The notes under the pieces were generated by a model. The model saw only the letters and a program-made list of their open reading frames with translations. It was not told the origin of the DNA and did not search any database. A stretch of DNA of 16,392 bases from a virus (lineage: Duplodnaviria; Heunggongvirae; Uroviricota; Caudoviricetes). Position numbers and translations under genes: made by a program. Within the stretch, counting starts at the first letter, position 1; each line of letters begins with the position of its first letter. Below are positions 616-16,392 of this stretch, in pieces. The stretch is from the IMG/VR virus record IMGVR_UViG_2541047751_000017; one strand, written 5' to 3'.

Positions 616-634
616 GCCATCCATGGCTAACCAG

Positions 635-2740
635 TTATTGAGCTTCTTTTTGTGATGCCTGTGCGACTCTGGTGAGCGATTGTGTGACCGTACTGATCGC
701 TCTGTCATATGCTGTGCTACCTTTTGGCGTATTTGCCAGACGTAACAAGGCATTTCGTATAACAGGGCTTTCGTATGCCTTCGCTGCTCCGCCTACGGCA
801 CCAGCAGCAGGAACAACAAACGCAGCCGTTTTTAGCATCCCCGCTAATACTGCTGCGTTTATGATGCCACCACCAACTAACAAACCATAAAGCTGCTGAC
901 CATTTAAGTTTTGAACGTTCGCTTTTGCCGCGTGTCTTGTATCGTTGAGGTATTTAATAACGCCGTCCAGTTCCTTTCCATGTACGCCTTTAAAGAAAGT
1001 TGCTGATTGCTTCCTGTTCCGGTGTAACGCATTAATAAACTTCTCAACACTGATATTTCCAGACGGATCAGTCGCCTTATCTACAGCATTCTGAACTATG
1101 GCTGCTCGTGCGTTTTGCCTACCATTGTCATCCAGAAGCCTGTAAAGCTGAGAACGTTCTGATGGGTTTTGGCTAAAAACGAGTTTTGTTACATCCTCAG
1201 GCGTGGCCTTGCCGCTGGCTATTGCCTTTTGAACGCGCGTTCTTCCCATCATGTCATTAAATTTAGACCATGAGCGATCAACCCTTGCCATATTAATGGC
1301 TTCGTCTGCTCCAAGATTTTTGGCTACGGCTTTTTTCATATCCGCCGTATATGCCTTGTAGATAATATCGCTGGCTTTCTGGAGCGTATCTTTATCAACA
1401 GTGTCAGATGACGCCATAAATCGCTTTCGAAGATCGGTTCTGTTTTCCCTCGCCAGACGCAGGTCATTTGGTCCGCTGGTGATATCGTCTTTAAATTGCT
1501 GCAAGACTTTTACCGCGGCTCTATCCTGAGATTTGCCCGGGCGGCTTAACACGGCAATCTGATTGTCGATAGCTTTTACCGTGTTTGAGAGATCGACAGG
1601 GGTATCCCCCATAGCGTCAATTATGCGGTTATATCGCTTTCCTGCTGCCTCAATGAATTTTTGTTGCCCTTTAGTCGCAGATTCATAAAGCTGTTTATCA
1701 GAAATGCCACCCAGACCATCGCTAAATGTTCTGACTAAATTTTCTCGTGCTTGTTGTTGATTCAGCCGATTCTTACCGGTTCCAAAAAAAGGAACTCTTT
1801 CGCCTAATGTCTGAGCCTGACTCTGCATAAAGGTTTTATCTTTTAGCATGTCACTGGTCATTAACGGCAGATTTCTTTCCGATGCAAAGTCGACAGCAGC
1901 CTTTGCTTCAGGCGACATATCACCACGAACAGCCCTCGAAACCGCACTCGCTGTATTTTCCAGCCCCTTACCAATACCACCAATGCCAGCAGAAATTACC
2001 GTTTGTAACGGATCAATATCTTCTCCACCAGCAAGGCTAGTGGCTCCCTGTAGTGCTAAATCTGTAGCTGCTGATTTTCCTATGGCACCAAGCACCGTTC
2101 CAGCCCTGCCCGCTGGTGTAAACGCCAGCGCATTAGCCAGAAACGATGCCACGTCTTGCGGCGATAAACCCGGCTTGTTCAGAGCATAATCACCGGATGG
2201 CAGGGAAACGATAGTGTTACCCTTCTCATCCTGCCTTAATTTCGCTCCCATGCTCTGAAGAATCTTTTCCTGAGATGCGTCAGAGCCGAAAAGTTGAGAC
2301 CATCGAGCTTTTAGAGCATCCATGCTGAGTGAGGTTAACTCTGGGGCAAGGTCGACATTTTGCAGTCTCTCCATCTCTGGAGTCATTCGGCTTTCGCCTG
2401 TTATAGCATCGCGCATCGCAGCCCCAAGACTGGCTCCCTGTTCTGCTGAACGCTCAAGCCCCTCTCTTTGCTGAGTAGCTAACTTTGCATACCCTGACGC
2501 AAGAGAATTATCAGATGATGTATGTTGAATATTTTGAGTTGCTGATTGGGATCGGTCTATTTCATTCGTTGATGGTAGTGGATAGGCAGCATAAAAAGCC
2601 TGCTTAGCCTGCTCTACACTTTCTCCGGCTTGCGAGGCCACGACTTCATTGAAGTATTGCTCCTGAGCCTGCGCTTTTTGTTCTGGTGCTAACGCCTGAT
2701 ACTGTGGAGAGGCGATAACATCTTTCCATGCTTTAGCCAT
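635..2740 (-). CDS. Putative phage ejection/DNA-transfer protein, P22 gp16-like by position and size
   Basis: 701-aa ORF, last gene of a coupled operon; start overlaps the stop of the 473-aa gene by 1 nt (TAATG). Ala/Gln-rich with a Gly/Ala-rich hydrophobic C-terminal segment (LVGGGIINAAVLAGMLKTAAFVVPAAGAVGGAA). Family assignment is from size, order and composition only. Confidence 0.5.
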   Translation of the reverse strand: MAKAWKDVIASPQYQALAPEQKAQAQEQYFNEVVASQAGESVEQAKQAFYAAYPLPSTNEIDRSQSATQNIQHTSSDNSLASGYAKLATQQREGLERSAEQGASLGAAMRDAITGESRMTPEMERLQNVDLAPELTSLSMDALKARWSQLFGSDASQEKILQSMGAKLRQDEKGNTIVSLPSGDYALNKPGLSPQDVASFLANALAFTPAGRAGTVLGAIGKSAATDLALQGATSLAGGEDIDPLQTVISAGIGGIGKGLENTASAVSRAVRGDMSPEAKAAVDFASERNLPLMTSDMLKDKTFMQSQAQTLGERVPFFGTGKNRLNQQQARENLVRTFSDGLGGISDKQLYESATKGQQKFIEAAGKRYNRIIDAMGDTPVDLSNTVKAIDNQIAVLSRPGKSQDRAAVKVLQQFKDDITSGPNDLRLARENRTDLRKRFMASSDTVDKDTLQKASDIIYKAYTADMKKAVAKNLGADEAINMARVDRSWSKFNDMMGRTRVQKAIASGKATPEDVTKLVFSQNPSERSQLYRLLDDNGRQNARAAIVQNAVDKATDPSGNISVEKFINALHRNRKQSATFFKGVHGKELDGVIKYLNDTRHAAKANVQNLNGQQLYGLLVGGGIINAAVLAGMLKTAAFVVPAAGAVGGAAKAYESPVIRNALLRLANTPKGSTAYDRAISTVTQSLTRVAQASQKEAQ

Positions 2741-4161
2741 TAATCACCCCATAGTGAAGAAAAGTTACTGCTGGCTGCTGGCTGTGATACCTGCTCAGAT
2801 TGCGGCAATGTCTGCGACGAAGAAGAAGTTCCTCTGTCAACTGCTGAAATAACCCGCAAAGCATCATAAGCTCGACCAGAAGCAGCTTTCAGCGAATTGA
2901 ACTGGTTTTCCATCTTCCGGCGCTTGGTATCAATGGTTTTTGTGGAGTCGCCAGGCTGAGGGAAATACATTTGATAATATTTTGACATTTCAGCAGGTAC
3001 GATGGCTGCCCCTGTTTCCTGACGGAGTATTGCCATTATTGCGTCATTAGCATTAACAACGTATTGCTGTTCTGTTGGGCTGAGCGTTAAGTTAGCCAGC
3101 GTCCCATTACCCAAAGCATTATTAATGATCGCCACTCGCTGTGGGCTAAGCTGGTCTTTCAGTGTATCTATTGAATCAAGAGCATCCCTAACCCTGTATG
3201 CAAATCCAGCAGCTTTTTTAGCCCCTTCTGGCGACTTTTCCATGATCTTTTGGGCTGTTGGCAAAGCTATTGGACGAAACCCATCTCCAGATATTGGCTG
3301 GTTTAGTTTTCCCTGCTCTTCACTTCCGTCTGTGTAGTATTTTGTGACAGTGCCATCATCGTTTTCTCTAACACTCATTAATTTTTTGGCGTTTGTATTA
3401 ATTCCAGCCGCTGCCGCAAATGCCGCCGCCCCCTCTGGATCCGCCTTTAACATTTGAGCGTACTGATTGTAATTCTGCATTGCTGCTGTTGGTGCATATG
3501 CTGACGTTAACGCATTTGCTCGGCTAATATCCTGCCCTCTCGCCTGAAGTGCTTCGCCAGCCTGATTGCTGCGGATTGTTTCTGCCAACTTGCCACGCTC
3601 AATATCCCGACCTTCCATTTGATCTTTGATATCGAAATACTTCTCATGACCGAGAGAAAACAGTGCCATACTACCAGCAAGCCGCTGGAACCCCTGTGGA
3701 TCATTAACATGCATTTCGGCAACAGACTCAGGAGAAATTCCCAAGCGACGCATTTCATCTTCGTTATCTGCTATGAATTTTCCAAATGCCCCAGTTCCGA
3801 GCGAAGATGCGATTTGAGCACTAGTCGCAAGATGACCAATAGAATTTCTCTGGTCGTCATCAATAAAGCCCATCCCTTTCTGAACGCTTTCAAATTCTTC
3901 TGGATACTCAGAAATAAGACTGCGCATTTTGTTTCTGTCTCCAGACTCAAAAGCCCCGGCATATGCTTTCTGAAACTCTGCTTTACGCTGTTGTTGACGT
4001 GCCTGCTGATTAATCTCAGCAACGCCTCTTAGCCCCTGTAGCGCCATTAAACCTACGTTTGGCTGCTGCTGATACTGCACAGGCTGAGGAACGGAAGAAC
4101 GAGGAGCATTATCATTTTGCGGTGCCATGCTAGGCAGCCCGCCAAGTTGCCATGTCGCCAT
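2740..4161 (-). CDS. Putative phage ejection/DNA-transfer protein, P22 gp20-like by position and size
   Basis: 473-aa ORF (P22 gp20 is about 471 aa, recalled from memory). 1-nt start/stop overlaps with both neighbours. Gln/Ala-rich, no recognisable catalytic motif. Confidence 0.5.
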   Translation of the reverse strand: MATWQLGGLPSMAPQNDNAPRSSVPQPVQYQQQPNVGLMALQGLRGVAEINQQARQQQRKAEFQKAYAGAFESGDRNKMRSLISEYPEEFESVQKGMGFIDDDQRNSIGHLATSAQIASSLGTGAFGKFIADNEDEMRRLGISPESVAEMHVNDPQGFQRLAGSMALFSLGHEKYFDIKDQMEGRDIERGKLAETIRSNQAGEALQARGQDISRANALTSAYAPTAAMQNYNQYAQMLKADPEGAAAFAAAAGINTNAKKLMSVRENDDGTVTKYYTDGSEEQGKLNQPISGDGFRPIALPTAQKIMEKSPEGAKKAAGFAYRVRDALDSIDTLKDQLSPQRVAIINNALGNGTLANLTLSPTEQQYVVNANDAIMAILRQETGAAIVPAEMSKYYQMYFPQPGDSTKTIDTKRRKMENQFNSLKAASGRAYDALRVISAVDRGTSSSSQTLPQSEQVSQPAASSNFSSLWGD

Positions 4162-4838
4162 TAGAATCCAAGCCCCCCAACAAGACCAATAAGCCCACCA
4201 CCAATAGCGCCGGCCGCAGTTCCTATTCCAGGAACAACGGAACCAAGTTGCGCACCCGCTAAAGCGCCTGATGCTGCCCCACCAATACCACGCGCAAGAC
4301 TGGATGGCTGCTGCGCCTGACCTGCACGAATAGCGCCAAGCCCCTGCAAGAGTTGTCCGGTATTATTGGCGTAGTTTTGCCCTGCCGTTGCCTGCCCTGA
4401 TGCCGCATTCATCCCGACATTTAGCAGGTTTCCATAATTTTGCATTTGCCCACTGAGCCAATTGTTATAAAGCATGGGCGCAATGGAAGATAACTGGTTA
4501 CTGGTAGCTGTTGAGCCAAGCCCCCCGGTAGCTTCTGCTGAGACAAGGTTCTGATAACGGGCCTGATCTGCCTGTGTTTTATATAAACCAGAACCAAAGA
4601 AATCATTCGCGGCTTTATTCTGCCCTTCCAGAGTCATCAGTCCTTGTAGTTGTTGTAAAGCAGGCAATCCGACTTCTGCATACGGCTTGAGATTATTCAT
4701 CACCGTATTCCACTGCTCGCGCTGCAAATCAATTGCCTGCTGCTGGGCCTTCGCCTGAGCTTTAGAGGCACCACCATCACCGCCTTTTTCGTATACGGCA
4801 CGATTGAGATGTTTATGAGCTATGTGGGTAATTAACAT
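4161..4838 (-). CDS. Putative phage ejection/DNA-transfer protein, P22 gp7-like by position and size
   Basis: 225-aa ORF (P22 gp7 is about 229 aa, recalled). N-terminal YEKGGDGGAS motif, Gln/Ala-rich centre, Gly-rich hydrophobic C-terminus (GIGTAAGAIGGGLIGLVGGLGF). Overlaps the upstream 153-aa gene by 7 nt. Confidence 0.5.
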   Translation of the reverse strand: MLITHIAHKHLNRAVYEKGGDGGASKAQAKAQQQAIDLQREQWNTVMNNLKPYAEVGLPALQQLQGLMTLEGQNKAANDFFGSGLYKTQADQARYQNLVSAEATGGLGSTATSNQLSSIAPMLYNNWLSGQMQNYGNLLNVGMNAASGQATAGQNYANNTGQLLQGLGAIRAGQAQQPSSLARGIGGAASGALAGAQLGSVVPGIGTAAGAIGGGLIGLVGGLGF

Positions 4839-5293
4839 TCGCTGAATTCCTTATATTGTTGCCGAGTTAACTGATAAAGCGTTACGCCGACGGGTTTACC
4901 ACATCTGATATAAGCATCATCAAGGTGACCAACACGGGTAGCGCCAAGCAAACGGATAATTGCCCGTCCGTATTTCGTGGTGTCAGGAACCATAGTAATG
5001 CTGTTAAGGAATGGTGAGTTTTCGAGAAGCCATTTGCAGAATAATCGATGCCCTTGCAGTGCATATTCACCACGGAATCCGGGGTCGTACACCGCATGGC
5101 ATTCAACAACGCTATGCCAGAAGTTACGCACTTCATGAACGCCAGCCAGCACTAATCCTTCGTAGATGCCGAGATATACCGCATCAGGCTTGATGTAGTA
5201 CGTGTGCCCCGGCTCAACAATATTTTCGGTATTGCCTGGCTCGTTAAGAAAGGCCTGTAATCGCACAGGGTTATCAATAAATTTTAGTTCCAT
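4832..5293 (-). CDS. Hypothetical protein, first large gene of the ejection-protein-like operon (P22 gene-14 position)
   Basis: 153-aa ORF with ATG start at 5293, protein-like composition, co-oriented and overlapping the next gene. Confidence 0.55.
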   Translation of the reverse strand: MELKFIDNPVRLQAFLNEPGNTENIVEPGHTYYIKPDAVYLGIYEGLVLAGVHEVRNFWHSVVECHAVYDPGFRGEYALQGHRLFCKWLLENSPFLNSITMVPDTTKYGRAIIRLLGATRVGHLDDAYIRCGKPVGVTLYQLTRQQYKEFSEC

Positions 5294-5309
5294 GCGATGC
5301 CATCCATTT

Positions 5310-5471
5310 TCACATACAGCCTGCCAGCGCCTTATCTATTAACCCTCGTGCAATTTCATGCAGAGTTGGCGCTACTCCAATTCCTGATTTTTTACGCTGC
5401 TCTTCCTGAATTTTCTTTATCGCTTCCATTTGCTTCTCACTTATCAATACCGGCTTTACTGAAATAGCCAT
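5310..5471 (-). CDS. Possible small ribbon-helix-helix-like DNA-binding protein (53 aa); not in the ORF track
   Basis: Own translation of the minus strand: MAISVKPVLISEKQMEAIKKIQEEQRKKSGIGVAPTLHEIARGLIDKALAGCM. ATG at 5471 is preceded by AAGGGGG 4 nt upstream. Pattern is short strand, helix, G-rich turn, helix, as in Arc/CopG/ParD-type proteins. Stop lies 16 bp from the 153-aa start. Confidence 0.3.
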   Translation of the reverse strand: MAISVKPVLISEKQMEAIKKIQEEQRKKSGIGVAPTLHEIARGLIDKALAGCM

Positions 5472-5504
5472 AACGCCCCCTTAGAACTGTATAAAACAAC
5501 AGTT

Positions 5505-5510
5505 ATTATA
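5505..5510 (-). promoter_or_regulatory. Candidate -10 hexamer (TATAAT on minus strand) for the downstream operon
   Basis: Perfect TATAAT on the minus strand in the AT-rich gap between the terminator and the small ORF RBS; no convincing -35 at 17 bp. Confidence 0.25.
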
Positions 5511-5566
5511 GTTTCACAAATCGCAATATTCATCATCGTAATTGCAAAATATGAAACAAATAGCAC

Positions 5567-5598
5567 AAAAAAATGCCACCGCTCAGTAGCTGGTGGCA
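5567..5598 (-). terminator. Rho-independent terminator ending the primase operon
   Basis: Inverted repeat TGCCACC (5574-5580) / GGTGGCA (5592-5598) with an 11-nt loop; on the minus strand the stem is followed by a 7-U run (plus-strand A run 5567-5573). Confidence 0.55.
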
Positions 5599-5792
5599 TC
5601 GTTCTGTGTGTCAGGTTTTGACAGGTTTTTTATGGACTCTAAAAACTATATTTATGGTGTCGCATTACTCTTCACGGCAGGCGCTTTTCAGTTCTGCCCT
5701 TGCTTCTGGCTCCATTGGTAATTTGATTCGCGATCAGCTATGCGGATGGTTTGCTGAACAGGCATAACAACTTCTCAGAGGCTGTTTTTTGA

Positions 5793-5811
5793 ACTACGAA
5801 AATTTCGTAGT
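5793..5811. promoter_or_regulatory. Perfect palindrome ACTACGAAA-a-TTTCGTAGT, putative protein-binding site in the origin region
   Basis: 9-bp arms with a 1-bp centre; no adjacent U-run in the correct position on either strand, so not a terminator. Confidence 0.3.
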
Positions 5812-5848
5812 GCTCACTTTCAAAAACGTCACGCCCTTGTACACAGGA

Positions 5849-5869
5849 TTTTACGAAAGTCTCGTAAAA
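5849..5869. promoter_or_regulatory. Palindrome TTTTACGA-aagtc-TCGTAAAA, putative protein-binding site
   Basis: 8-bp perfect inverted repeat with 5-bp spacer, between the first palindrome and the iterons. Confidence 0.3.
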
Positions 5870-5919
5870 CACTCTCTGATGCCAGCCAGGTGTTGTGCGC
5901 ATCAATTCAGTCACATTGT

Positions 5920-6030
5920 GTTGGTTCAAAATACCGTGTTGTTGGTTCAGTGTTGGTTCAATAAAAAGAATAAAATCCTTATAAAACAATACTCTTTACA
6001 AATTGAACCAACTGAACCAACTGAACCAAC
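5920..6030. repeat. Iteron array, putative replication origin: six copies of GTTGGTTCA, three direct and three inverted, around a 43-bp AT-rich spacer
   Basis: GTTGGTTCA at 5920-5928, 5941-5949, 5952-5960; reverse complement TGAACCAAC at 6004-6012, 6013-6021, 6022-6030 (tandem 9-bp period); AT-rich spacer 5961-6003. Lies just 3' of the primase-helicase gene. Confidence 0.6.
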
Positions 6031-6055
6031 ACCTTTTCTACGCACATGAAGAAGC

Positions 6056-8815
6056 TCATTCTTCAGATGAGTTATAATCTCCTGGCTGGTAATTGAGTAC
6101 ATAAACGTTTATTTGTCGTCCCTGAATACGTGGTGATTTTCTTTGGTATCCACGACCGCTGTTTGGTGGGGTTAGCATCCCGGCTTTTTTCAACACTTCA
6201 GCAAACTGTTTTGCGTTGAAACCACATGCGATCTCCTTTTCAAATGTGGCCGGGAATGTGTAGAAAATCATTGGGCTTTCGTCATGTTCTCCACGCTGAC
6301 GGTATCCGGCTAAATCTTTGATGGGCAAATCTGCCGGGCTGTATGGAAATGGTGCAAAACGGCTAAGCCCATAGGCATTAAGAAATGCCTCCGTTTGTTC
6401 AATAATCTGCTGATGCTCTTTGTTACCTGTGCCGAACTCACGCAACCATGCGTTATAGCTGTGCTGTATCGCATCACGGCATGTCTGAGCATCCCAGCCT
6501 GTTACAACCTCGCCTAACAACAATGCGGCCTCCAGAATGGCAAATCGCGCGGCTACACGGTGAACCTGCTCACCATAATCGGATGGGATCAGGCTTCTCC
6601 ATCTGCTTTCGCAATCACGAACGGTTTTAATAGCCTGTTGCTGGTGGTCTGCCAGCCATTTAATCCACTCACGCCCGGACGCGCCGTGGTGATGCTGGTA
6701 AGCGTCTTTCAGTGCGTCTGCGTGCTGTTTTCCGTTCTGGTAATCGTGAAAGCGTACTGCTTTACTCAACGGAATATTCAGCAGTCGCACCAGTTGCCCG
6801 GCTTTGGTTTTTCGCCCGGAAGTAGCGATAAATGTTTCTAAATCCATTTCTCCGGTGCTGATTGCCACTGTACGCCAACGTTTTAGATCCCGGTTTCCAC
6901 CATCTTTAGCGCCTTGCAGTTTCCCTACACCGTTAAATAACGCATAGGCAGACTGTGAAACGCTGACAGGATCAGCGCCCTGACCAACTTCATCAAGCGG
7001 CATTAGTCCGTCATTGTGGGCGGCGGCCTCATTTGCCAGCCCCAGCGCGGTTCCGTACCACGTCAGCCGCAGTAAATCAGGGTTGCCGTATAAGCTGCTC
7101 GCCACGTTTGCCGTGGTGGTCTTACCTGCGCTCGACTGCTCATAGAAATGAATGCCGAACCCGTCAGCGCCCACCAGCCCAATCAATGGCGCTGCCAGTG
7201 CTGCGCCGATCCCGGTCATCATTGAATAGTTACCAAAGGCCAGACGCGCCACGTTATCACGCCAGCTTTTCGCGCTCCCTGAGACGGTATATCCGGCTGC
7301 GGCTGAGCTTCTCCCGCTGAACAGCACAGGATTTTCAGGTGTTCCGATGATTTCCCCATCAGGCATGATGTACGCTCCGCATTGCCAGCCAGTGGCATGA
7401 GCAACACGCCACAATTCACGAGAGCCACTGCGTTGTAGCCAGTCTGCCAGTATTGCTCTGAGGCTGCTTTTGGTCGTGACATTTACCCCACCAGCTTTAA
7501 GTGTGCGCCATCCTTCACGTTCACCAATATCAGCCAGTGGAATGGCAGCGGTTGTCGGCGTTTCAGAACCAAACGACAGCCAGCGAAGAATGAGATACTG
7601 GTCTTTATCGTCTCTGCCAGTACCGATAACGCTTAACGGAGAACATAACCAGCTTTCGTTATTGATGATTTCTCCACTCTGGCTGTCAGCTCTCGGAGAT
7701 ACCCAATAAATACCATCCTCGCGGCTTTCTATTCTTGGTTTCAGTGGGTCGGTATCCATAACCTTAAAATCGCTTCCCTCAATGGTCTGTGGCTCCTGTT
7801 TCACGCCATTACCCTGTGGTTGGTACATTGACTTATTGAACGCTTCTGTGGCGCATTTAATGCCGTGTTTTTGGTGGTAATCATTCCAGTCTGCTTTGTG
7901 ATCTGTCGGGGGTAATGCCACCCATCCAGAAACAGATAAAGCTGCTTTTTCTGCTGCTATTCTCCCCGTGTTTTGTCTTCCTTCGCTGTGGTCGTTATCC
8001 GCAGCAATGATGATTTGTGCTGAAGGAAATTTATCCCGCAGTACCTGGGCGACATATAACAGGTTCCCGGCATCAATCGCCGCCACTGTCAGCGCCTCTG
8101 GACGAATTAAATGGGCAGATAATGCCGTTGCCAGCCCTTCTGTAATTAAGATGCTCTGTGTTGTTTCTGGCGCGTTTATGGCGTGATATGCCCCCCGCTT
8201 TGCTGAACCTCTCAGGAGTCTTTTTTCACCATGTGAGGTAATAGTCTGTGCTGCTGTGACTGCGCCGGATTTATCCACCAGCGCCAGCAACAGAGATCCA
8301 TCGGGCAACACGGGGAATGTAAAATCACCTACCCCTTTCGCAACCAGATAATCAGATTTGCCGTTTACAGCCTTTCTGCGCATGTCATCAAACTGACGGG
8401 AAAACGTATCCCGTCTTTGTTGTTCGTCCTTCTCTGCCCTTTTCAGGCGCTCCTGTTCGCGTCGCTGGCGCTCGGTTTCCAGTTGTTCCCGTTTCTGGCT
8501 GGTGGCTTCTGGTGTTTCCGTTGTCCGGTAATCAATACCCAGAACATCAGCGGCAAGAAGCGCCGCCTCTGTTGTGTCGCAGTTATTTACGCGTTTAATT
8601 AAATCCAGCCCATCACCAGCGCCGCACTGATTACAGATGAAGCTACCGCGCCCGTTGTCATCGAACCGGAATCGATCTTTGCCCCCACATGCAGGGCAGG
8701 GAGCATGACGGCGCGGAGAGTCAGGGACATTTATGTTCAGGCAGCCCAGCACATGAGGCCAGTTGTTTTCAGACGCACTGATAACCTGACGGATAAGATC
8801 AATGTTTCGCATCAC
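6056..8815 (-). CDS. Primase-helicase, P4 alpha-like (zinc ribbon, TOPRIM-type primase domain, P-loop NTPase domain)
   Basis: 919-aa ORF. N-terminal CPACGG...CNQCG zinc-binding motif, ITEGLATA (EGYATA-like) and AADNDH TOPRIM-type motifs, Walker A SSAGKTT, charged coiled-coil linker (ERQRREQERLKRAEKDEQQRRD). Track start is GTG at 8815; ATG at 8812 is an alternative. Confidence 0.85.
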   Translation of the reverse strand: MMRNIDLIRQVISASENNWPHVLGCLNINVPDSPRRHAPCPACGGKDRFRFDDNGRGSFICNQCGAGDGLDLIKRVNNCDTTEAALLAADVLGIDYRTTETPEATSQKREQLETERQRREQERLKRAEKDEQQRRDTFSRQFDDMRRKAVNGKSDYLVAKGVGDFTFPVLPDGSLLLALVDKSGAVTAAQTITSHGEKRLLRGSAKRGAYHAINAPETTQSILITEGLATALSAHLIRPEALTVAAIDAGNLLYVAQVLRDKFPSAQIIIAADNDHSEGRQNTGRIAAEKAALSVSGWVALPPTDHKADWNDYHQKHGIKCATEAFNKSMYQPQGNGVKQEPQTIEGSDFKVMDTDPLKPRIESREDGIYWVSPRADSQSGEIINNESWLCSPLSVIGTGRDDKDQYLILRWLSFGSETPTTAAIPLADIGEREGWRTLKAGGVNVTTKSSLRAILADWLQRSGSRELWRVAHATGWQCGAYIMPDGEIIGTPENPVLFSGRSSAAAGYTVSGSAKSWRDNVARLAFGNYSMMTGIGAALAAPLIGLVGADGFGIHFYEQSSAGKTTTANVASSLYGNPDLLRLTWYGTALGLANEAAAHNDGLMPLDEVGQGADPVSVSQSAYALFNGVGKLQGAKDGGNRDLKRWRTVAISTGEMDLETFIATSGRKTKAGQLVRLLNIPLSKAVRFHDYQNGKQHADALKDAYQHHHGASGREWIKWLADHQQQAIKTVRDCESRWRSLIPSDYGEQVHRVAARFAILEAALLLGEVVTGWDAQTCRDAIQHSYNAWLREFGTGNKEHQQIIEQTEAFLNAYGLSRFAPFPYSPADLPIKDLAGYRQRGEHDESPMIFYTFPATFEKEIACGFNAKQFAEVLKKAGMLTPPNSGRGYQRKSPRIQGRQINVYVLNYQPGDYNSSEE

Positions 8816-9170
8816 CGTACCCCACGTGGTCTATAGCGTTTGCGATATGGCTAACCAGCATCTGCCACTTGGTTATTCCGTAATCAGTCAGCATGCCATC
8901 ATTGTTTAGCCACATATCAAATTCAGCGGTTGTCGCAAGTTTCCACTTATCGCCGTGGACAGTCCTCATTGCTGGGTACATGAATGCGCAAATCAGATCA
9001 CAAACATCTGACGGCTTCAGAGATGTAGTAATGATGCGTCCCTCTGGCGTCTGAATTGCCATTTTCTCTTCACCAGTAGAATGAAGGTTATGAATCCACA
9101 CAGCACCAGCAATCTTTGCCACCTGCTCTCCGATTGCGGAGCTAAGCGCCATTTCTGCATTTTCACGCAT
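8799..9170 (-). CDS. Hypothetical protein (123 aa), primase-operon member
   Basis: ATG at 9170 preceded by GGAGG at 5-nt spacing; overlaps the upstream gene stop by 8 nt and the primase start. Confidence 0.55.
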   Translation of the reverse strand: MRENAEMALSSAIGEQVAKIAGAVWIHNLHSTGEEKMAIQTPEGRIITTSLKPSDVCDLICAFMYPAMRTVHGDKWKLATTAEFDMWLNNDGMLTDYGITKWQMLVSHIANAIDHVGYGDAKH

Positions 9171-9504
9171 GAGAACCTCCCGCTACAGTTGCGCCCATGT
9201 CATTAACCATGCTTTGCCATATCTCACGCCCGACGTCAGTCAATCCGTCCTTAGTGACGCAACGATCAAGAAGCTCGATCCCCACGGTTTCCCACTGCGG
9301 GTAGAACACTTTCATGGCTGCCAGTGTGTAGCTATCGATCAGGCTGCGAACGCCTTTTACTCCATTGACGATTTCCACACGGACGGCCTCGCCGTCCGCA
9401 TCAACCATGAAATAGTCCCCGCCGCTGGTGGAGGTAATGTGGTTATACAGTGCCGACGCATACTTATTTGCCAGCGCATTCAGTCGGAAATTTTTAGTAA
9501 TCAT
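9163..9504 (-). CDS. Hypothetical protein (113 aa)
   Basis: ATG at 9504 with AGGA-type RBS; 10-nt gap from upstream gene; stop overlaps the next start. Confidence 0.55.
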   Translation of the reverse strand: MITKNFRLNALANKYASALYNHITSTSGGDYFMVDADGEAVRVEIVNGVKGVRSLIDSYTLAAMKVFYPQWETVGIELLDRCVTKDGLTDVGREIWQSMVNDMGATVAGGSHA

Positions 9505-9514
9505 GGCTCCATCC

Positions 9515-10117
9515 TCAGTGCGTCACTGGTTCCGCTGGCATGCCGTTTTCATTCAGTTCAGCTATAAAGCTGTTGTGAAGTTCAGCAAGCGTTTCACGAC
9601 CAAATGGAGTCAGTGCTCCTTGTTCCACATCCATCATGGCTCTGTAGAAAATGATGGCGCGTTCTGTGCCAGACTCGATGCCAAAACGTTCTATCATCGC
9701 GCCCTCAATGTTGTTTGCCATAGCGAGGCGCTCTGCTACTGGATACAGCGGCATGGCGACGATGCCGTTGGAATAAACAGCCACTTCGGAAGGATTGCCA
9801 GTATCATCAATGATGCTGACAGTGCCGTTTTCCTCTCTCATTTCCAGCATGAATACTGTTGCGATCAGCCATCTCCACATAATGACGTTATGCTGTGATG
9901 TGTAATCGAAATATCCCTGGTTGCCGCCATCGGCTATAGCGAGATGTATTGACATACCTTCATCTGGTTTATCGTCATAATCCCCGGCATCCAGACGATT
10001 TACGGCATCAATATATGAGACGGCCTCAACGCGTTCTGTCATGCCATCGTTGCTGCGGTACATGATGTTTACGCCGTCAGGCGTTGCTTCTGCATGGAAA
10101 GTTAAGAAATTATTCAT
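9515..10117 (-). CDS. Hypothetical protein (about 200 aa from ATG at 10117; track ORF extends to a TTG at 10222)
   Basis: ATG at 10117 preceded by GAGG at 6 nt and overlapping the upstream gene stop by 8 nt, matching the coupling pattern of neighbours. Start at 10222 or at the ATG at 10150 cannot be excluded. Confidence 0.5.
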   Translation of the reverse strand: MNNFLTFHAEATPDGVNIMYRSNDGMTERVEAVSYIDAVNRLDAGDYDDKPDEGMSIHLAIADGGNQGYFDYTSQHNVIMWRWLIATVFMLEMREENGTVSIIDDTGNPSEVAVYSNGIVAMPLYPVAERLAMANNIEGAMIERFGIESGTERAIIFYRAMMDVEQGALTPFGRETLAELHNSFIAELNENGMPAEPVTH

Positions 10118-10331
10118 GTTTCGCCTCGCCTGAATGATTCTGTAACTCATATTTGCCCAACAATTCGTCTGCTTCCTGAATAGCTTCTGGTACGCCATTG
10201 AGCAGTGACATAACCGCGCCAATCATTAACTTGTCTCTGTTGCTGGGGCTGGCCCCTTCAAGCCAGAACCCTAAAACAGTCTGAACCTGTTCGATGCGAC
10301 ATTGCGCTTCAATGAGCTGGATGTTGGTCAT
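10110..10331 (-). CDS. Hypothetical small protein (73 aa)
   Basis: ATG at 10331 with GGAGAG RBS at 6 nt; ATGA overlap with the upstream gene. Confidence 0.5.
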   Translation of the reverse strand: MTNIQLIEAQCRIEQVQTVLGFWLEGASPSNRDKLMIGAVMSLLNGVPEAIQEADELLGKYELQNHSGEAKHE

Positions 10332-10591
10332 TTCGCACTCTCCGCATCGATTAAACTGATATCTATCAGAGAGGTAACTTTTTGTAGCCAGCTAGTGATT
10401 ACTGTCGCCTGTTCCCCTCCCACCGATGGAAGAATCTCATTCATCACATGAACCAGACCTGTGCGCGCCCTGGTAAGCCGTTCAGTCGTGCGATCTGCAA
10501 GAGTGAATGTGTCTGGATATGGCTCTTCACGGCTCAGCAATGATTCAATTTCCAGCTCACACGGATGACGATAAATTAAGTTGATATTCAT
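10328..10591 (-). CDS. Hypothetical small protein (87 aa)
   Basis: ATG at 10591 with GGTGGTG RBS; ATGA overlap with the upstream gene. Confidence 0.5.
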   Translation of the reverse strand: MNINLIYRHPCELEIESLLSREEPYPDTFTLADRTTERLTRARTGLVHVMNEILPSVGGEQATVITSWLQKVTSLIDISLIDAESAK

Positions 10592-10782
10592 TTTTCACCA
10601 CCAAGAATTACCAGCTCTGCACGGGCATCGTTAACCAAAGATGAGCACGCTTTAATCGCATCCACGACATCAGCAGCGTCCATTTCTTCAGCCGAAAGAC
10701 TGACAGCAACCAGGACAGCCGCTGCTTGCTCGATTAATTGAAGTGCGGACGTAAGGCGAGGGGCATTAATTGAGTTATTCAT
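10588..10782 (-). CDS. Hypothetical small protein (64 aa)
   Basis: ATG at 10782; 8-nt overlap with the upstream gene. Confidence 0.5.
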   Translation of the reverse strand: MNNSINAPRLTSALQLIEQAAAVLVAVSLSAEEMDAADVVDAIKACSSLVNDARAELVILGGEK

Positions 10783-10993
10783 TGGTTGCCCCCGTTTTTA
10801 CTGGCATTTCGCCACCTTCCAGCAGGAAATGAACGTCACGAACGGCGAGATCCAATATCGCGAGTAACGCCTTCAGTCTTTCGTCTCGTGAGGGAGAGTT
10901 GCTCACCAGAATGTCGTTAATCACTTCTGTCAGTGTGATGATCTGGCTTGTGCGTTCGAGGGGATCCATATGCACATCGTAGGTTTTAATCAT
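10775..10993 (-). CDS. Hypothetical small protein (72 aa), short form of the 355-codon open frame
   Basis: Internal ATG at 10993 preceded by a near-ideal GGAGG at 6 nt. The residues just upstream in the long frame (AWRWH) look like an RBS read as codons rather than protein. Confidence 0.5.
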   Translation of the reverse strand: MIKTYDVHMDPLERTSQIITLTEVINDILVSNSPSRDERLKALLAILDLAVRDVHFLLEGGEMPVKTGATNE

Positions 10994-11842
10994 GTGCCAC
11001 CTCCATGCGGATACGACCAGCAAAAAAGCAGACGTGATCGCGCACCAGAGAACGGCGAGCATCGCGTTCAGACTCGGCAGCAATATGATGAATTTTGGCG
11101 GTAATTGTCGGGCAATCGCGGCGAACTGCGGCGATAATCCAGATAAATTGCGGTTTTTGGGTAGGGGTAGTAGCCAGCATGTGGCAGCCTCCATTCGATA
11201 GCATGTAACGCTACCACCGGAAACGCCAATTTCGCTGGTGGTAGCCCAGACAGGGTTGGCGTAACCGGCTCGAATGGATACCGGCGCTTCCGAAGAAGCC
11301 CCTGCCTGAGCCACCATTGATTGACAAAGGCGCTGGATTATACACCAACGCCCAAAAAATGGGTGAGTCAGACCTACGACATAAAAAAAGACGCTCGGCG
11401 CGTCATATGTCGCCATTCGATTTACCAGGACGCCAATCCCGGCACCCGTTTTATGAGGTGCCTTATAACCATAAACCGTGTTGCCGCATAACGGCAAGCT
11501 CTTTTTTATGGACTCCGAAAACTCACTATTGGAAGAACCAGAAGCACAGTACATCGCGCTCATTTCGTTAACGTCACGCGCGTGGACGAAGGTTTTTGTG
11601 GAGTCACTACGCGAGCAGAGAAAGCCATCTACGACCAGAAATTCTCTGGCGCAGCCGCTGACCTTCTCAACGCTAACACCATCGACCGTAATTTCTGACA
11701 TAGTTAAGGCATCCGCTCCTACCACCAGCAAATGATAAACTTTGCTTGTATCTGCTGTATTAATGCCTGACTTTGCCGTCATATTGCTGGATTTTGGCGA
11801 CATACCAGCCAGTGAAAATGTCTTCTTCTGGGCGGTTAGCAT
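10775..11842 (-). CDS. Alternative long form: 355-codon open frame from a strongly initiated ATG at 11842; possibly a fused or frameshifted gene
   Basis: ATG at 11842 has GGAGG at 7 nt and overlaps the stop of the upstream 60-aa gene. The frame stays open for 355 codons, but residues encoded between about 11000 and 11250 are Trp/Cys-rich and not protein-like. Confidence 0.25.
11208..11245. promoter_or_regulatory. Inverted repeat GCTACCACC / GGTGGTAGC with 18-nt spacer, possible RNA stem-loop or operator
   Basis: Perfect 9-bp arms at 11210-11218 and 11237-11245; no adjacent U-run, so not a classical terminator. Confidence 0.25.
11481..11508 (+). terminator. Plus-strand terminator-like hairpin, antisense to the main operon
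   Basis: Stem TTGCCG (11481-11486) / CGGCAA (11492-11497), 5-nt loop, 4-nt spacer, then T6 (11503-11508). A TTGACA hexamer sits at 11321-11326 without a well-spaced -10. Confidence 0.25.
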
Positions 11843-12018
11843 TTGTTAACCTCCGCGAACTCCTTCATGAAACGTGCCAGCGGTTGTACGCATGGCGATT
11901 GATACCCGTCGCGATAAAACGTCACTCGGTTGTGAGACACGCTTTCGACAGTAACGAGTGCTCCGTGGGCATCTTTGTAGCGTTTTTGAGGTTGTGGTGT
12001 TCCTGTCGGCTTAAACAT
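11836..12018 (-). CDS. Hypothetical small protein (60 aa from the ATG overlapping the antirepressor stop)
   Basis: ATG at 12018 overlaps the stop of the 277-aa gene (ATGTTTAA arrangement). The track ORF extends upstream to 12105, but that extension overlaps the preceding gene. Confidence 0.45.
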   Translation of the reverse strand: MFKPTGTPQPQKRYKDAHGALVTVESVSHNRVTFYRDGYQSPCVQPLARFMKEFAEVNKC

Positions 12019-12844
12019 GGACCGCCTCCAGACGCTTGGCGAGCCAGCGTTGCGACAGGCGGGTGAGTTCTCCTTTACGCTGCTCATATTCCATGCCCAT
12101 ATCAATTAACGTGATATTGGTGCTTTCGAGATATGAGAGGTGCTCAAGCTGTTCTGCGTTCATATGGTCGCGAGGTTCGCCAGAATAGCCATTTATCCGC
12201 GCCCACTGCTTAGCAGTTAGCCCACCAAGAACGATACGAGAAATCATATTGCTCTCGTTTGTGTAGTGGTGTTGCTGCGTCGTTTTACCCATCTCGGCAC
12301 GGGCCATATTCAGCGCATCGCACATTGGCTTAAAGTTGTTTGCGGCACTGATACGGGCTTTTAGCTGGCGACGATAGCGGGCGGCGATTTCAGGCACGCT
12401 ACGCTGTAATTCTTCCTCGCACTGGATGAAATAACGGCGGATAGCGCGCCCCTGATCATTGCGTTCGATCATTGCCAGTTCTTTCGCCATTCCGACACTT
12501 AACAGATAGTCTTTGCCGGGTCTGCCAGACTGCTTAATCTTGCTGTAAGCCGCGTCATTCGGGCTTTTCCCCAAATTTGGGGAAATTGTTTTATGGACTG
12601 AGTAATCGTGCCCAATGGTGAAGTCATATTCAGAGATGCGATCAGTGATCCATGTAGAGAAGTCTTTTCCCACGCCCAACGCTTTGTGTAACGCTTTTGC
12701 GCTAACAATATTGGTTTCACGCCCACCGATATGACCAGGAATAACCGGGACAATTGCGGCAAATTCATTACCGTTAATTGTGCCCAGAGAGGCGTTCAGA
12801 TGAGGGGCGGCCTCAGAAATTAATCTGCTTTTTTCGATGTTCAT
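12011..12844 (-). CDS. Phage antirepressor-like protein, AntA/AntB N-terminal domain type
   Basis: 277-aa ORF; GGAG RBS 8 nt upstream. N-terminal segments SAKALHKALGVGKDFSTWITDRISEYDFTIGHDY and DYLLSVGMAKELAMIERNDQGRAIRRYFIQCEEEL match, from memory, the conserved AntA-domain pattern of phage antirepressors. Confidence 0.65.
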   Translation of the reverse strand: MNIEKSRLISEAAPHLNASLGTINGNEFAAIVPVIPGHIGGRETNIVSAKALHKALGVGKDFSTWITDRISEYDFTIGHDYSVHKTISPNLGKSPNDAAYSKIKQSGRPGKDYLLSVGMAKELAMIERNDQGRAIRRYFIQCEEELQRSVPEIAARYRRQLKARISAANNFKPMCDALNMARAEMGKTTQQHHYTNESNMISRIVLGGLTAKQWARINGYSGEPRDHMNAEQLEHLSYLESTNITLIDMGMEYEQRKGELTRLSQRWLAKRLEAVHV

Positions 12845-12856
12845 TTTCAGTCTCCG

Positions 12857-13288
12857 TTAGGCGGCGTTAAACGCGTTCGGGTAGAGTTTCAGAATGTCGG
12901 CAATTTCCTGCTGAGAAAGTCCGTTGTGATCATTTATGTTCGCAAGATGGTTAACATGAGTGATCACTTTCAGAACATCACCACGGCAGGAGAAACGGTA
13001 GCGAAGGTGTGTTCCGATACCATCAGGATTCTTTTCGTCGATACGCTCCAGAGTGATTCCAAGCTGGCGTTCTAACTCTGTTGCATAGTTACGACCAGAA
13101 GACAGACGGCAGTAGCGAAGAATGTCATTTTCTGTCCATCCCTCTATACCAGTACGCAGCATATAGACTCTGGCACGATGCTTTTTCGGTGTGCGCTTTG
13201 GTGCTTGAAGGGATTTTGTAAGGGGCGTAACATCAGATACGCGAATATCTGAATTAGCCGCCTGTAATGGGCGGTTTTTCTTTTCCAT
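12857..13288 (-). CDS. Hypothetical protein (143 aa), basic N-terminus, coupled to alpA
   Basis: ATG at 13288 overlaps the alpA stop by 1 nt (TGATG); AAGGTGG RBS at 4 nt. Lys/Arg-rich N-terminal third. No family recognised. Confidence 0.6.
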   Translation of the reverse strand: MEKKNRPLQAANSDIRVSDVTPLTKSLQAPKRTPKKHRARVYMLRTGIEGWTENDILRYCRLSSGRNYATELERQLGITLERIDEKNPDGIGTHLRYRFSCRGDVLKVITHVNHLANINDHNGLSQQEIADILKLYPNAFNAA

Positions 13289-13506
13289 CAGGCCACCTTC
13301 CCGCGGCGTTCTGCCAGCCAGTTATTAATTTCCACCGCATCAAACGCAGTCACGTTATCTGTTAGCTTCACTGGGCGTGGAAGAGTGCCATTTTTAACCC
13401 ATCTATCAATAGTAGGCAGTGAAACACCTAGCAATTCCGGCATGCGAAAGCGACGGATGTATCCAGTTGTTGGGATAGCTGATGATGCTGGCTTGTGTGC
13501 TGTCAT
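13288..13506 (-). CDS. alpA: AlpA-family phage transcriptional regulator/excisionase-like protein
   Basis: Motif RMPELLGVSLPTIDRWVKNGTLPRPVKL is the canonical AlpA helix-turn-helix signature. Start placed at ATG 13506 (72 aa, GGAG RBS at 9 nt); the track ORF extends to 13575 without RBS support. Confidence 0.8.
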   Translation of the reverse strand: MTAHKPASSAIPTTGYIRRFRMPELLGVSLPTIDRWVKNGTLPRPVKLTDNVTAFDAVEINNWLAERRGKVA

Positions 13507-13574
13507 ATGTTCTGTAACTCCTGTGATAGCTGTTGAAGTTACGGTAATCATGTGAGCAGGGGGATTAGATGTCA

Positions 13575-13603
13575 TCGCAACGAAAAATGGATTTTCGTTG
13601 CGA
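13575..13603. promoter_or_regulatory. Perfect 12-bp inverted repeat with 5-bp spacer, putative operator in the alpA promoter region
   Basis: TCGCAACGAAAA-atgga-TTTTCGTTGCGA at 13575-13603, in the 105-bp gap between the 293-aa gene stop and alpA. No U-run follows the stem on either strand. Confidence 0.4.
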
Positions 13604-13611
13604 AATTATCT

Positions 13612-14493
13612 TTATGATTTAAAAGATTTGTTAGCTGATGAGAAATATTCATCCAGTAAGCGGGAGCTTAATTTTAAACCCCTATCCAGCATTTCTGCTT
13701 TGAGGGCTTCTTGTGTCCACCTTTTAGAAGTTGGTTCGGCTTTCTTTAAAGCGTTGAGCACCGCGCCAAGCAGTAAAAGGCTTTCATCGAGGTTCAGGAG
13801 ACTGTTGTTATCACTGAGTGTTTTCTTTTCAAATTCTGCAATATTTTCTTTTCTGAATACGAACTCGACATTACCCAGCCCATCAGCAGGATAGAAAAAG
13901 GGATGATAACCATCGAGGCTAAAGTCAACAAACCTCTGTGATTCTTTGTCGTACAGTTTAGGTTTGCCATTTTCATCTGACTTGATGGCATATTCATTGA
14001 ACGCGTTCAGAATATTCACCAGACCAAATTCTGTTAAGAGGAAAGCACCTTCCATGTTGTGAAATTCACGGGGAACCTTGTCGCGTGAAAGGTCAAACTC
14101 GTGCATAACATCTAAAGATTCAGCCCCAACCATCGGTAGATCGTATATGCCATGATTAATACGAAAAACATCACTGACTCTTTCTATATCTTCGTATTCA
14201 TAATCCAATTGTTCATTAGTATAGAATTCATCACCGGCAGGAGTTCTAATTACCGCACCTTCGTTAGTATTTTCAACAATCCACTTTTCAAAAACTCTTC
14301 GTTGCGAGTTTTTGATGACTTGAGCAGCGATAGCGTAACGGCCTTCGTCCAATATCGCTGAAATTGTAATGTGGCCTTCTACAGCCAATTGCAGGCAATC
14401 GGCTACAGATACCCTTTCACCGAGTGTTGTGCTTAACCTGTTTGCGGTTTCCTCTATGGTCAACCAACTTTTGAACTGGAACAATTTGCTCAT
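13612..14493 (-). CDS. Hypothetical protein (293 aa), AT-rich cargo gene between int and alpA; candidate accessory or defence gene
   Basis: Long ORF in DNA visibly more AT-rich than its neighbours. Acidic, soluble-looking protein with no TM segment and no recognisable catalytic motif. Confidence 0.7.
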   Translation of the reverse strand: MSKLFQFKSWLTIEETANRLSTTLGERVSVADCLQLAVEGHITISAILDEGRYAIAAQVIKNSQRRVFEKWIVENTNEGAVIRTPAGDEFYTNEQLDYEYEDIERVSDVFRINHGIYDLPMVGAESLDVMHEFDLSRDKVPREFHNMEGAFLLTEFGLVNILNAFNEYAIKSDENGKPKLYDKESQRFVDFSLDGYHPFFYPADGLGNVEFVFRKENIAEFEKKTLSDNNSLLNLDESLLLLGAVLNALKKAEPTSKRWTQEALKAEMLDRGLKLSSRLLDEYFSSANKSFKS

Positions 14494-14586
14494 AGCGTAA
14501 CCTTTCGCGCTGCCTTAAAGAGTGACCGGAACAGGCGGTAAGGCTTTCCGCTTTTCGCCCCGTCGGGCTAGTTCCGGTCTGTTCGG

Positions 14587-15846
14587 TTACTTTGCCTTTC
14601 TGATAGGCGTCACGTTGTAATCTTCGCCCTTCTCCAGAGCCACCAGCAAGCCCGCCCACTGTGTTAACGCAGCCCGGCGCTCGTCAAAGTATTGGTGACG
14701 GTTATAGATACCCTCAACGCCTTTTATGCGGTGATTGAGGCATCTTTCAGCCACTACCGGATCAACGCCCAGCGCTGCTAAATGAGTACGTGCGGTGCGT
14801 CGGAAGTCGTGAATCGTGAAATTAGGCACATCCGGCATTTCGGCGCGAACCTTAGCCAGTGCTACGGGTAAAGTGCTTTCCTGAATATGTGGAATCATTC
14901 TGTTTTGCATCTTCCTGGCCGGAAGCACCCATGCGCTATTACATGAAAAGGTGTGTAGCTCTCTCAACCATTCAACGGCTGGGGAAGGTAGAGGTATATC
15001 AATAGGGTCTCCGTTTTTGCTGCGTTCTTCCGGCAAATGCCATACCGCACCATCTAAATCAAACTCTTCCCATCGTGCGGCGCATAACTCCATCTTACGA
15101 ACGCATAGTGCCAGCAATAGCTTAAATGTCAGTTCGTTTTGGCGGCTGAATCCTTTTGCGGTGCGCATAGCCTCGAATAGCCTGATAAGCTCATCGCGAG
15201 TTAGCCAACGGTCGCGGGAAACCTCTTTACCACCAGCATCAGATACTTCAAACGCTGAACAAGGGTTTATCTCCAGAGCGTGGCGTTTTATCCCATAGTC
15301 AAAGATACGGCGTGTCCAGCGTAATACATCTGTTGCTATCGTTGGTGCTCCTCGGTCAACGATACCTTTCAACATGTCGTCAATGTGGCGTGGCTTAACG
15401 TCCTCTACCTTCATATGCCCAATGCAGGGGTTAATATCCTTATCAATTCTCCGGCGAAGGATATCGGGATGTTTCCATCTCGGAAGTATCTGTCGCTCGA
15501 AGTATTCGGCGGCCAGATCTGAAACGCGCATGGCGTTTTTCTCAGCCTCCATTTTTGCCAGTGCTTCAGCTTTTCGTTCCTGTTTTTCTGCTGCTACGTC
15601 ATAGCCAAGAGCAACTCTGGCTGACAGCTCTTTTGCTGTTTCTCTGGCTTTTGATAGTGACAGTTCGGAGTAAGAGCCGATAACCATAGCCCGCTGTTTT
15701 CCTGCGAGCTTATATCGGAATCGCCAGAACGGGACTGTGTAGTTTTTGGGGTAGCAAATATAAAGGCCGTTGCCGTCTGCCTTGCCATCAAATCTGTCTC
15801 CCGCCTTTATCCATGCGCGGATCTGCATATCTGTGAGTTTTGGCAT
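14587..15846 (-). CDS. int: Tyrosine-type site-specific integrase, P4-like (N-terminal arm-binding domain plus catalytic domain)
   Basis: N-terminus LTDMQIRAW...DGNGLYICY...WRFRYKLAGKQRAMVIGSY fits the P4-type integrase N-domain pattern. C-terminus carries HDFRRT (H-x-x-R) and GIYNRHQY (tyrosine nucleophile region). Start placed at ATG 15846 (MPKL...); the track ORF begins 28 codons upstream. Confidence 0.9.
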   Translation of the reverse strand: MPKLTDMQIRAWIKAGDRFDGKADGNGLYICYPKNYTVPFWRFRYKLAGKQRAMVIGSYSELSLSKARETAKELSARVALGYDVAAEKQERKAEALAKMEAEKNAMRVSDLAAEYFERQILPRWKHPDILRRRIDKDINPCIGHMKVEDVKPRHIDDMLKGIVDRGAPTIATDVLRWTRRIFDYGIKRHALEINPCSAFEVSDAGGKEVSRDRWLTRDELIRLFEAMRTAKGFSRQNELTFKLLLALCVRKMELCAARWEEFDLDGAVWHLPEERSKNGDPIDIPLPSPAVEWLRELHTFSCNSAWVLPARKMQNRMIPHIQESTLPVALAKVRAEMPDVPNFTIHDFRRTARTHLAALGVDPVVAERCLNHRIKGVEGIYNRHQYFDERRAALTQWAGLLVALEKGEDYNVTPIRKAK

Positions 15847-15875
15847 TGCGAATACCTGAATATCGAATATGGGTG

Positions 15876-15926
15876 TGTACATAAAGCAATGTACATGAAA
15901 GTCATTATGTACACCTCTATGTACAC
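15876..15926. repeat. Four direct copies of TGTACA(Y) upstream of int; putative integrase arm sites or int operators
   Basis: TGTACAT at 15876 and 15890, TGTACAC at 15909 and 15920, all in the same orientation within 50 bp just upstream of the int start. Confidence 0.4.
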
Positions 15927-15971
15927 GCATATTGTGCGCTTTGTTGCGTCGTTATGATAGCTCATGATAAC

Positions 15972-16008
15972 AAAAAAGCCCGACATTTCGCGGGCTTTGT
16001 GGTTTTTT
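15972..16008. terminator. Bidirectional rho-independent terminator between int and the OMP gene fragment
   Basis: Stem AGCCCG (15977-15982) / CGGGCT (15991-15996) with 8-nt loop; A6 upstream (15972-15977, giving U6 after the stem on the minus strand) and a T-rich tract with T6 at 16003-16008 downstream. Confidence 0.55.
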
Positions 16009-16080
16009 GCTGCTTGGTGATTTTTACTGATAGCTTATTCGATATTCTGAATCAGAAACAGCAGTGCATTCACTCCATGG

Positions 16081-16392
16081 GTGTCTGTTGGACTGGGTTA
16101 TGCACGGATACATCATAAGGCAACATATACTGATACCTCCTGGAATAAATCTGGTGAGGTGAGCGATATTTCTGCGTTGCATTACTCGGGATATGATAAC
16201 AATTTCGCATGGAGCATTGGGGCCGGTGTTCGCTATGACATAACCCCGGATATCGCTCTTGACCTCAGCTATCGCTATCTGGATGCTGGTAAATCCTCCC
16301 TGTCTTACAAGGATGCAGAAGGGGATAAATATAAATCAGAGGCTGACGTTAAAAGTCATGACATCATGTTTGGTGTGACTTATAACTTCTGA
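16081..16392 (+). pseudogene. 5'-truncated outer-membrane beta-barrel protein gene, Ail/Lom/OmpX/PagC family (C-terminal about 100 codons)
   Basis: Ends with a beta-barrel terminus (...IMFGVTYNF, terminal Phe) and alternating aromatic strands (YDITPDIALDLSYRY). An in-frame TGA at 16048 and absence of signal peptide or RBS upstream show the N-terminal part is missing. Confidence 0.6.

Follow-up and report, generated by a model that had tools for sequence, protein, structure and literature searches.

Probable off-target integration of a yicC-specific, satellite-like element into the adhesin gene tia of Escherichia coli

Introduction

Integration of phage lambda at secondary attachment sites is known from classical genetics, and the satellite P4 integrates into a tRNA-Leu gene. 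For satellite integrases, off-target integrations have been documented in a study that also mentions PICIs at yicC (bioRxiv 10.1101/2022.07.18.500453). The 3' end of yicC is the integration site of the reference PICIs (bioRxiv 10.1101/2022.07.18.500453), of the 15.4-kb prophage P19 of E. coli O157:H7 (PMC7609406) and of SGI1-like and MGI elements (PMC8409611).

The DNA analysed here (hereafter the window) is a stretch of 16,392 nt, IMG/VR record IMGVR_UViG_2541047751_000017, in which the int-proximal end of a satellite-like element is joined to a fragment of tia. The element resembles P4 in the architecture of its integrase, in the position of int at one end and in its AlpA-like regulator, large primase, Ash and Icd-like genes; it differs in that its integrase clade targets a protein gene and in that no psu, delta or sid is annotated. 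As in other yicC elements, the integrase of this element type adjoins yicC, the 3' end of which is replaced by one that the element brings, an arrangement found in 282 complete-genome records. Unlike SGI1-like islands, its cargo comprises P22-type ejection proteins, a SieA-like protein and PerC, and the copy in the window is not at yicC. The fragment itself belongs with the tia/hek/hra1 adhesin-invasins of pathogenic E. coli, to which it is related by 99.1% nucleotide identity and by neighbours like those of papGII islands; only codons 137-248 are left here, hence it is a pseudogene.

The event proposed below would resemble secondary-site integration by lambda in that an integrase with a strongly preferred attB occasionally recombines attP with a partly similar site, at the normal exchange point, so that a gene is disrupted. 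It would differ in the very poor match of the tia target to the crossover segment, and the reciprocal joint was not seen here.

Results and Discussion

The integrase and its arm

The coordinates of the features are collected in Table 1. The int product was matched in Pfam by Arm-DNA-bind_3 (PF13356, E=9.5e-20), by the central Phage_int_M (PF22022, E=8.5e-17) and by the catalytic Phage_integrase (PF00589, E=7.2e-17). An N-terminal Arm-DNA-bind_3 (DUF4102) domain followed by a central and a C-terminal catalytic domain is the composition of the P4-like tyrosine integrases, to which the protein thus belongs. The boundary of int at 15847 in the earlier note, which was made from the sequence of the window alone, is right, the 447-aa open reading frame merely extending further upstream. 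Exactly this protein is on record in 855 blocks. It is the same allele as in yicC-resident elements, and adjoins yicC in nine of the ten places among those listed.

Table 1. Positions of the features in the window, and of one feature beyond it (^ marks the break)
Feature	Position	Strand	Description
int	14587-15846	minus	tyrosine integrase of P4-like architecture, 419 aa, full length
TGTACA motifs, four	15876-15925		candidate arm-type integrase binding sites, int-proximal arm
Two-way intrinsic terminator	15969-16009		hairpin 15975-15998, A run before, T run after
Element-borne att core TTATTCGATATTCTGAATC	16035-16053		19 of the 21 nt of the identity block TTATTCGATATTCTG[A/G]ATCTG
Novel joint	16045-16057		break between 16053 and 16054; 13-nt palindrome TTCTGAATC^AGAA (TTCTGAATCAGAA)
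tia/hek/hra1 3' fragment	16054-16392	plus	codons 137-248 and stop; last 112 codons
Second P4-type integrase, 420 aa	L010 16062-17597		5.7-7.2 kb beyond the window end, next to tRNA-Phe

Beyond int, the TGTACA repeats and the bidirectional terminator described in the earlier note are both present. The string ATGTACA has five matches in the 16.4-kb window when both strands are counted. These mark four TGTACA sites, all within 15876-15925. As 14 of 200 shuffles also reach five, the window-wide count is not significant; the notable feature is the clustering of the motifs within 50 nt. Two further copies of TGTACA lie in the far arm of the element, as read in relatives and in attP contigs, and a role of the motifs as arm sites bound by the integrase may be proposed. 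The hairpin of the terminator scores as such on both strands (fold -13.4 kcal/mol, z = -3.0). From the gene orientation at the normal site, it would be expected to halt yicC transcripts ahead of int.

No tRNA was found by ARAGORN in the window, and nothing near any gathering score was returned by Rfam for 15700-16392, as the earlier note had said of the surroundings of int; in the same searches, the int-proximal end showed no 3' part of a tRNA or tmRNA sharing the att core.

The cognate site

The segment 15600-16053 of the window matches 840 complete genomes, and its homology to yicC lysogens ends at 16053. In the top-ranked records, the annotated features under this match are the integrase and yicC. 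When an even sample of 60 was taken from the 282 complete-genome records carrying the int arm, yicC was found at the end of the arm match in all 60. Alignment to genomes lacking the element, which the earlier note had proposed as a check, yielded the empty site: in K-12, yicC and dinD are adjacent. The normal site of the integrase is therefore in a protein gene, yicC, of which it comprises the last 21 nt, and not in a tRNA gene. The premise that a tRNA should stand beside this integrase is overturned by the 60 records and by the K-12 empty site. Since the integrase clade targets yicC, the absence of a tRNA is expected; in this clade, a P4-type integrase without a tRNA is normal and no longer an anomaly.

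The int arm has 285 matches in complete genomes, one of which is on a plasmid. A 23-nt pattern of arm plus core also occurs in assemblies of Ruminococcus flavefaciens (L119, L122) and of Pseudoalteromonas (L121, L123), and the flank in L119, L121 and L122 resembles the 3' end of yicC from a different species. These occurrences stem either from contamination or from related elements having a much wider host range.

The attachment core and the exchange point

A 21-nt block, TTATTCGATATTCTG[A/G]ATCTG, defined by comparing the empty site with both element ends in lysogens, duplicates the final six codons and the stop codon of yicC. This core is identical in 12 int-side junctions at yicC, and the K-12 empty site carries the same block with one difference. 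Core position 10 is always A in int-side copies, and G in K-12 and in the full-length far-side copies. In three attP-form metagenome contigs (L106, L111 and L114), the int arm is followed by TTATTCGATATTCTG[A/G]ATCTG and then by the far arm TTTGTAGAG; one of them, L106, is 14.5 kb long and extends from int across attP to the far end and on into the element body. Since the block is joined to both arms in these contigs, the core is element-borne. The contigs are consistent with the element existing in excised form, as circles, or in tandem. A scan for attP in viral contigs found nothing.

Thus, for the element type, the 21-nt block is found in attP contigs, in lysogens and in the empty site, int adjoins the restored yicC and a direct repeat lies on the dinD side; the copy in the window does not sit at yicC. 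A core of TTATTCG only, as suggested by one lysogen with a shortened far-side copy, was ruled out by the full-length far-side copies and by the attP contigs.

On the far side (the dinD side), the copies differ by losses of 3-12 nt, and 10 of the 13 are shortened (L003, L042, L043, L049, L052, L056-L058, L063 and L065). All 13 retain TGRATCTG next to the far arm, the variation lying only to its left. Since the int-side copies are invariant and the variation of far-side copies and empty sites lies only further left, the crossover is placed in TGRATC(TG).

Some of the shortened far-side copies resemble empty-site variants of the same flank haplotype. Such copies suggest that the targets of integration had been variant attB sites, and not that the copies decayed afterwards. 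A 284-aa YicC ending in ...MREQIQ is encoded in more than 1000 contigs with empty yicC-dinD sites (L074-L078). Its cause is the in-frame loss of 9 nt within the att core, to the left of TGAATCTG, in at least three different forms. Such deletions may be scars left by excision, or attB alleles under selection for resistance to integration.

The tia fragment and its surroundings

After int, the earlier note had recognised a 5'-truncated outer-membrane-protein gene, which is indeed present and ends at the end of the window. The fragment is 99.1% identical, over 350 nt, to the 3' 351 nt of an annotated tia of 747 nt; 492 complete E. coli genomes carry genes annotated as 'invasion outer membrane protein Tia' that match 16043-16392 at this identity. 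The fragment lacks its own start codon and signal peptide, and a 103-aa open reading frame starting with GTG can be called at 16081-16392. The family label Ail/Lom/OmpX given earlier is only loosely right. An outer-membrane beta-barrel is recognised by OMP_b-brl (PF13505; E=8.8e-11 for the fragment, E=6.6e-22 for the full protein), but the Ail_Lom profile of Pfam matched neither the fragment nor full-length Tia at E<=0.01.

Window positions 6081-16392 are 100% identical to scaffold KE699788.1 of E. coli GCA_000457515.1, the one scaffold of like arrangement to which the 103-aa open reading frame led. Beyond the fragment, this scaffold encodes a phosphoethanolamine transferase, a 1171-aa helicase-like protein, a second integrase and tRNA-Phe, followed by yjdC, dsbD and cutA. 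In IAI39, a 747-nt tia lies just downstream of papG-II and is followed by the phosphoethanolamine transferase, the 1171-aa helicase-like protein, an integrase and tRNA-Phe. The order of genes after the window thus matches the pheU island of IAI39 and others.

The earlier note had called for a search for tRNA genes in the wider region. One is there, tRNA-Phe, 7.2 kb beyond the window end, but it adjoins a different P4-type integrase of 420 aa. This integrase and tRNA-Phe belong to the tia-carrying island, and not to the element of the window. A tRNA-targeting island with its tRNA just outside the window, or an adjacent lambdoid lom gene, are explanations that now deserve practically no credence: in spite of the tRNA-Phe, the att core of the integrase is yicC-derived and lies inside the window, and the fragment, which has no Ail_Lom match, is tia/hek, a gene that relatives carry downstream of pap in the tRNA-Phe island.

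In other genomes (L005-L014), tia is interrupted at three further points, all about 30 nt or less from the joint, and transposase genes of IS21 type (L007), IS66 type (L008) and rve type (L009) lie beside such breaks. An insertion-sequence hotspot in tia was considered and set aside as being, at least in part, an ascertainment bias, because the loci had been found via the 103-aa open reading frame.

The joints in tia and hsdR

The break was placed by aligning the window jointly to a yicC lysogen and to an intact tia. The window reads TTATTCGATATTCTGAATC^AGAAACAGCAGTGC, where intact tia reads GTATTATGACTTC^AGAAACAGCAGTGC. The element sequence stops at core position 19, two bases short of the core end, and tia continues without loss from codon 137. 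The earlier suggestion that the element had inserted into the outer-membrane-protein gene, or had deleted part of it, was sound in so far as the element end abuts the gene that it split, with the break exactly at the att core. As a refutation, the earlier note had named a tRNA or att core just outside the window, with the fragment being an unrelated older pseudogene. A core is present, but it lies inside the window and is fused directly to the tia fragment, so the fragment is not an unrelated older pseudogene.

A second off-target joint, with the same integrase allele, was found in hsdR at 9780-9800 of L037 (GCA_964042355.1), which sits near 3.427 Mb in a 3.7-Mb contig (CAXJLI010000001.1) of a different project. 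The gene belongs to an EcoAI-family type I restriction system, the restriction subunit of which is truncated. This joint reads TTCTGGATC^AGAACATCC, and intact hsdR reads GTAGTACTGGACC^AGAACATCC. Side by side, the tia joint is ...CTGAATC^AGAAACAG and the hsdR joint ...CTGGATC^AGAACATC, so that both break at the same nucleotide. The G variant is also found in attP contigs, so that no mosaic need be assumed for the hsdR joint.

In both cases, the foreign flank begins with AGAA. Read on the opposite strand, the left core GATGTTCT gives exactly the hsdR flank AGAACATC (8 of 8 positions); the tia flank shares only AGAA with the inverted left core. To the left of the break, 5-6 of 7 bases match the core in hsdR, and about 2 of 7 in tia. 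The joint in the window lies after core position 19, inside TGRATCTG, the segment of normal exchange by the integrase, and the hsdR break is at the same position. Two independent joints at one bond of the exchange segment argue for catalysis by the integrase over random breakage, an argument that rests on these two off-target joints only. Template switching at TTCTGAA, which tia contains in inverted form, was rejected, since it predicts a joint to the 5' part of tia in reversed orientation, unlike the joint observed.

Rarity and the reciprocal joint

Neither the tia joint nor the hsdR joint was found in any of 5426 complete E. coli genomes. No off-target joint of the form ...GRATCA was present in metagenome contigs, and ...GRATC followed by A, C or G was absent from the GTDB species-representative genomes; in these two scans, canonical or attP forms numbered 36. 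The off-target event is therefore rare.

Scaffold KE699788.1 has a gap of 968 N or more that begins 234 nt to the left of window position 1 (L083 19405-20372), so that the window lies at a contig edge and the reciprocal junction at the far end of the element is not readable in this scaffold. Five window proteins, looked up to reach this junction, led to other genomes, and two rare alleles led to the scaffold and its gap. The gap is probably due to the assembler having confused related copies of the element; in CP128255.1, two copies are present, one at thrW and one at yicC.

Predicted products of the reciprocal joint were sought in the protein collection, which contained neither Tia1-136+CL (two N-terminal alleles) nor Tia1-134 of the N50 allele, nor fusions of Tia with antisense yicC (three yicC tail variants with two alleles each), nor a YicC ending in ...MREQKS. 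For Tia1-134 of the D50 allele, only partial sequences at contig ends were retrieved, which stop a few bases before the joint and are uninformative. The 284-aa YicC was considered as a product of the window event and discarded, as it arises from the 9-nt in-frame deletions in empty sites. The far side of the hsdR insertion was sought with the predicted HsdR fusion as query, and no match covered the joint.

Off-target integration and its alternatives

Taken with the position of the break, the core and its joined attP form lead us to regard the junction as the probable result of integrase-mediated recombination at a secondary, off-target site in tia. The phage-satellite-like element, of about 18 kb, carries an attP with a 21-nt core copying the yicC 3' end. 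Normal exchange in the right-hand part of the core (TGRATC) puts int beside a restored yicC. According to the proposed mechanism, the same exchange point would have been used against the poorly matching tia sequence GTATTATGACTTC^AGAAAC, and the product would be the int arm and core positions 1-19 joined to tia from codon 137 onward, with inactivation of the adhesin gene. In the simplest history, an excised circular element would have integrated into tia, splitting the gene, and the insertion would have placed the 5' part of tia at the far end of the element, before TGTTTGTAGAG. We infer that the integrase catalysed the event and that the other half of tia stands at this far end. The poor match between tia and the core is a point against off-target integration, as strand exchange there should be inefficient.

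An event of this sort is of a known kind, in which a site-specific integrase uses a wrong site, rare but ordinary. It leaves the known picture of integrase behaviour unaltered, and provides a case of off-target integration resolved to the nucleotide for a very common satellite-like element of E. coli. In the tia case, a virulence-associated adhesin gene is knocked out. Together, the tia and hsdR joints narrow the exchange point of the integrase to a single bond, which is useful for att mapping.

The joint sequence would be the same if the integrase had caused an inversion, a yicC-resident prophage having recombined via its int-side att with the pseudo-site in tia. This would span about 0.55 Mb, from yicC to the pheU island and including oriC, and after it the far end of the element would border dinD, and yicC would be joined to the 5' part of tia elsewhere. 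Read in K-12 direction, the element is descending and tia-pheU-dsbD ascending; these gene orientations fit both a plain insertion into tia and an oriC-spanning inversion between yicC and tia. The inversion also gains from the absence on record of Tia1-136+CL, the product of simple insertion. However, the fusions of the 5' part of tia with yicC and the YicC ending in ...MREQKS that it predicts are not on record either, and the hsdR case is oriented as a joint of insertion or duplication, not of inversion. Furthermore, an excised attP form exists, so that integration from a circle needs no extra assumption. We thus hold the inversion to be unlikely. Were it true, a satellite integrase would be the driver of a large chromosomal rearrangement in extraintestinal pathogenic E. 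coli. Its extended version, in which cleavage would be fixed at ...TGRATC^, a flank YC^AGAA mirroring the left half-site would be preferred and the event would be the oriC inversion of about 0.55 Mb, appears quite unlikely.

Illegitimate recombination or deletion independent of the integrase, ending by chance in the att core with a 2-nt microhomology (TC), would agree with a similarity of tia and core to the left of the break that is near chance, only TC being common at the joint. This explanation is very unlikely to be correct: the independent hsdR joint breaks at the same element nucleotide, this nucleotide is inside the segment where normal crossover must occur, and both foreign flanks start with AGAA.

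The scaffold dates from 2013 and was built from short reads, and the element is multi-copy in some genomes (CP128255.1, at thrW and yicC), with a scaffold gap 234 nt to the left of the window. An assembly chimera could be imagined on these grounds. It is nevertheless highly improbable, as the element copies have neither the integrase module nor tia in common (thrW-type homology ends near 13298-13383), no repeat is present at the joint to mislead the assembler, and the same breakpoint was met again in the 3.7-Mb contig of another project. Off-target integration into tia is accordingly the reading retained here.

The element body

The element body, positions 1-13600 of the window, encodes a SieA-like protein (1-615) and homologues of the P22 ejection proteins gp16, gp20 and gp7 (635-4838), together with DUF2824, a 918-aa primase, Ash, AntA and AlpA-like proteins. 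In the element body of a relative, no capsid, tail or terminase gene is annotated. A satellite-like element with its own DNA-ejection proteins is unusual, and no description of the present one was found in a full-text literature search. The element is very common, with a 204-aa allele in 5749 blocks of the collection.

The same element body was also found with a different integrase of 404 aa at thrW, with proBA on the int side (L046, L051 and L062). Homology of the window to these thrW copies ends at about 13298-13383; therefore, the integration module has been swapped as a cassette. In several of the genomes that carry this body, vatX-vat lies directly beyond the far end of the element.
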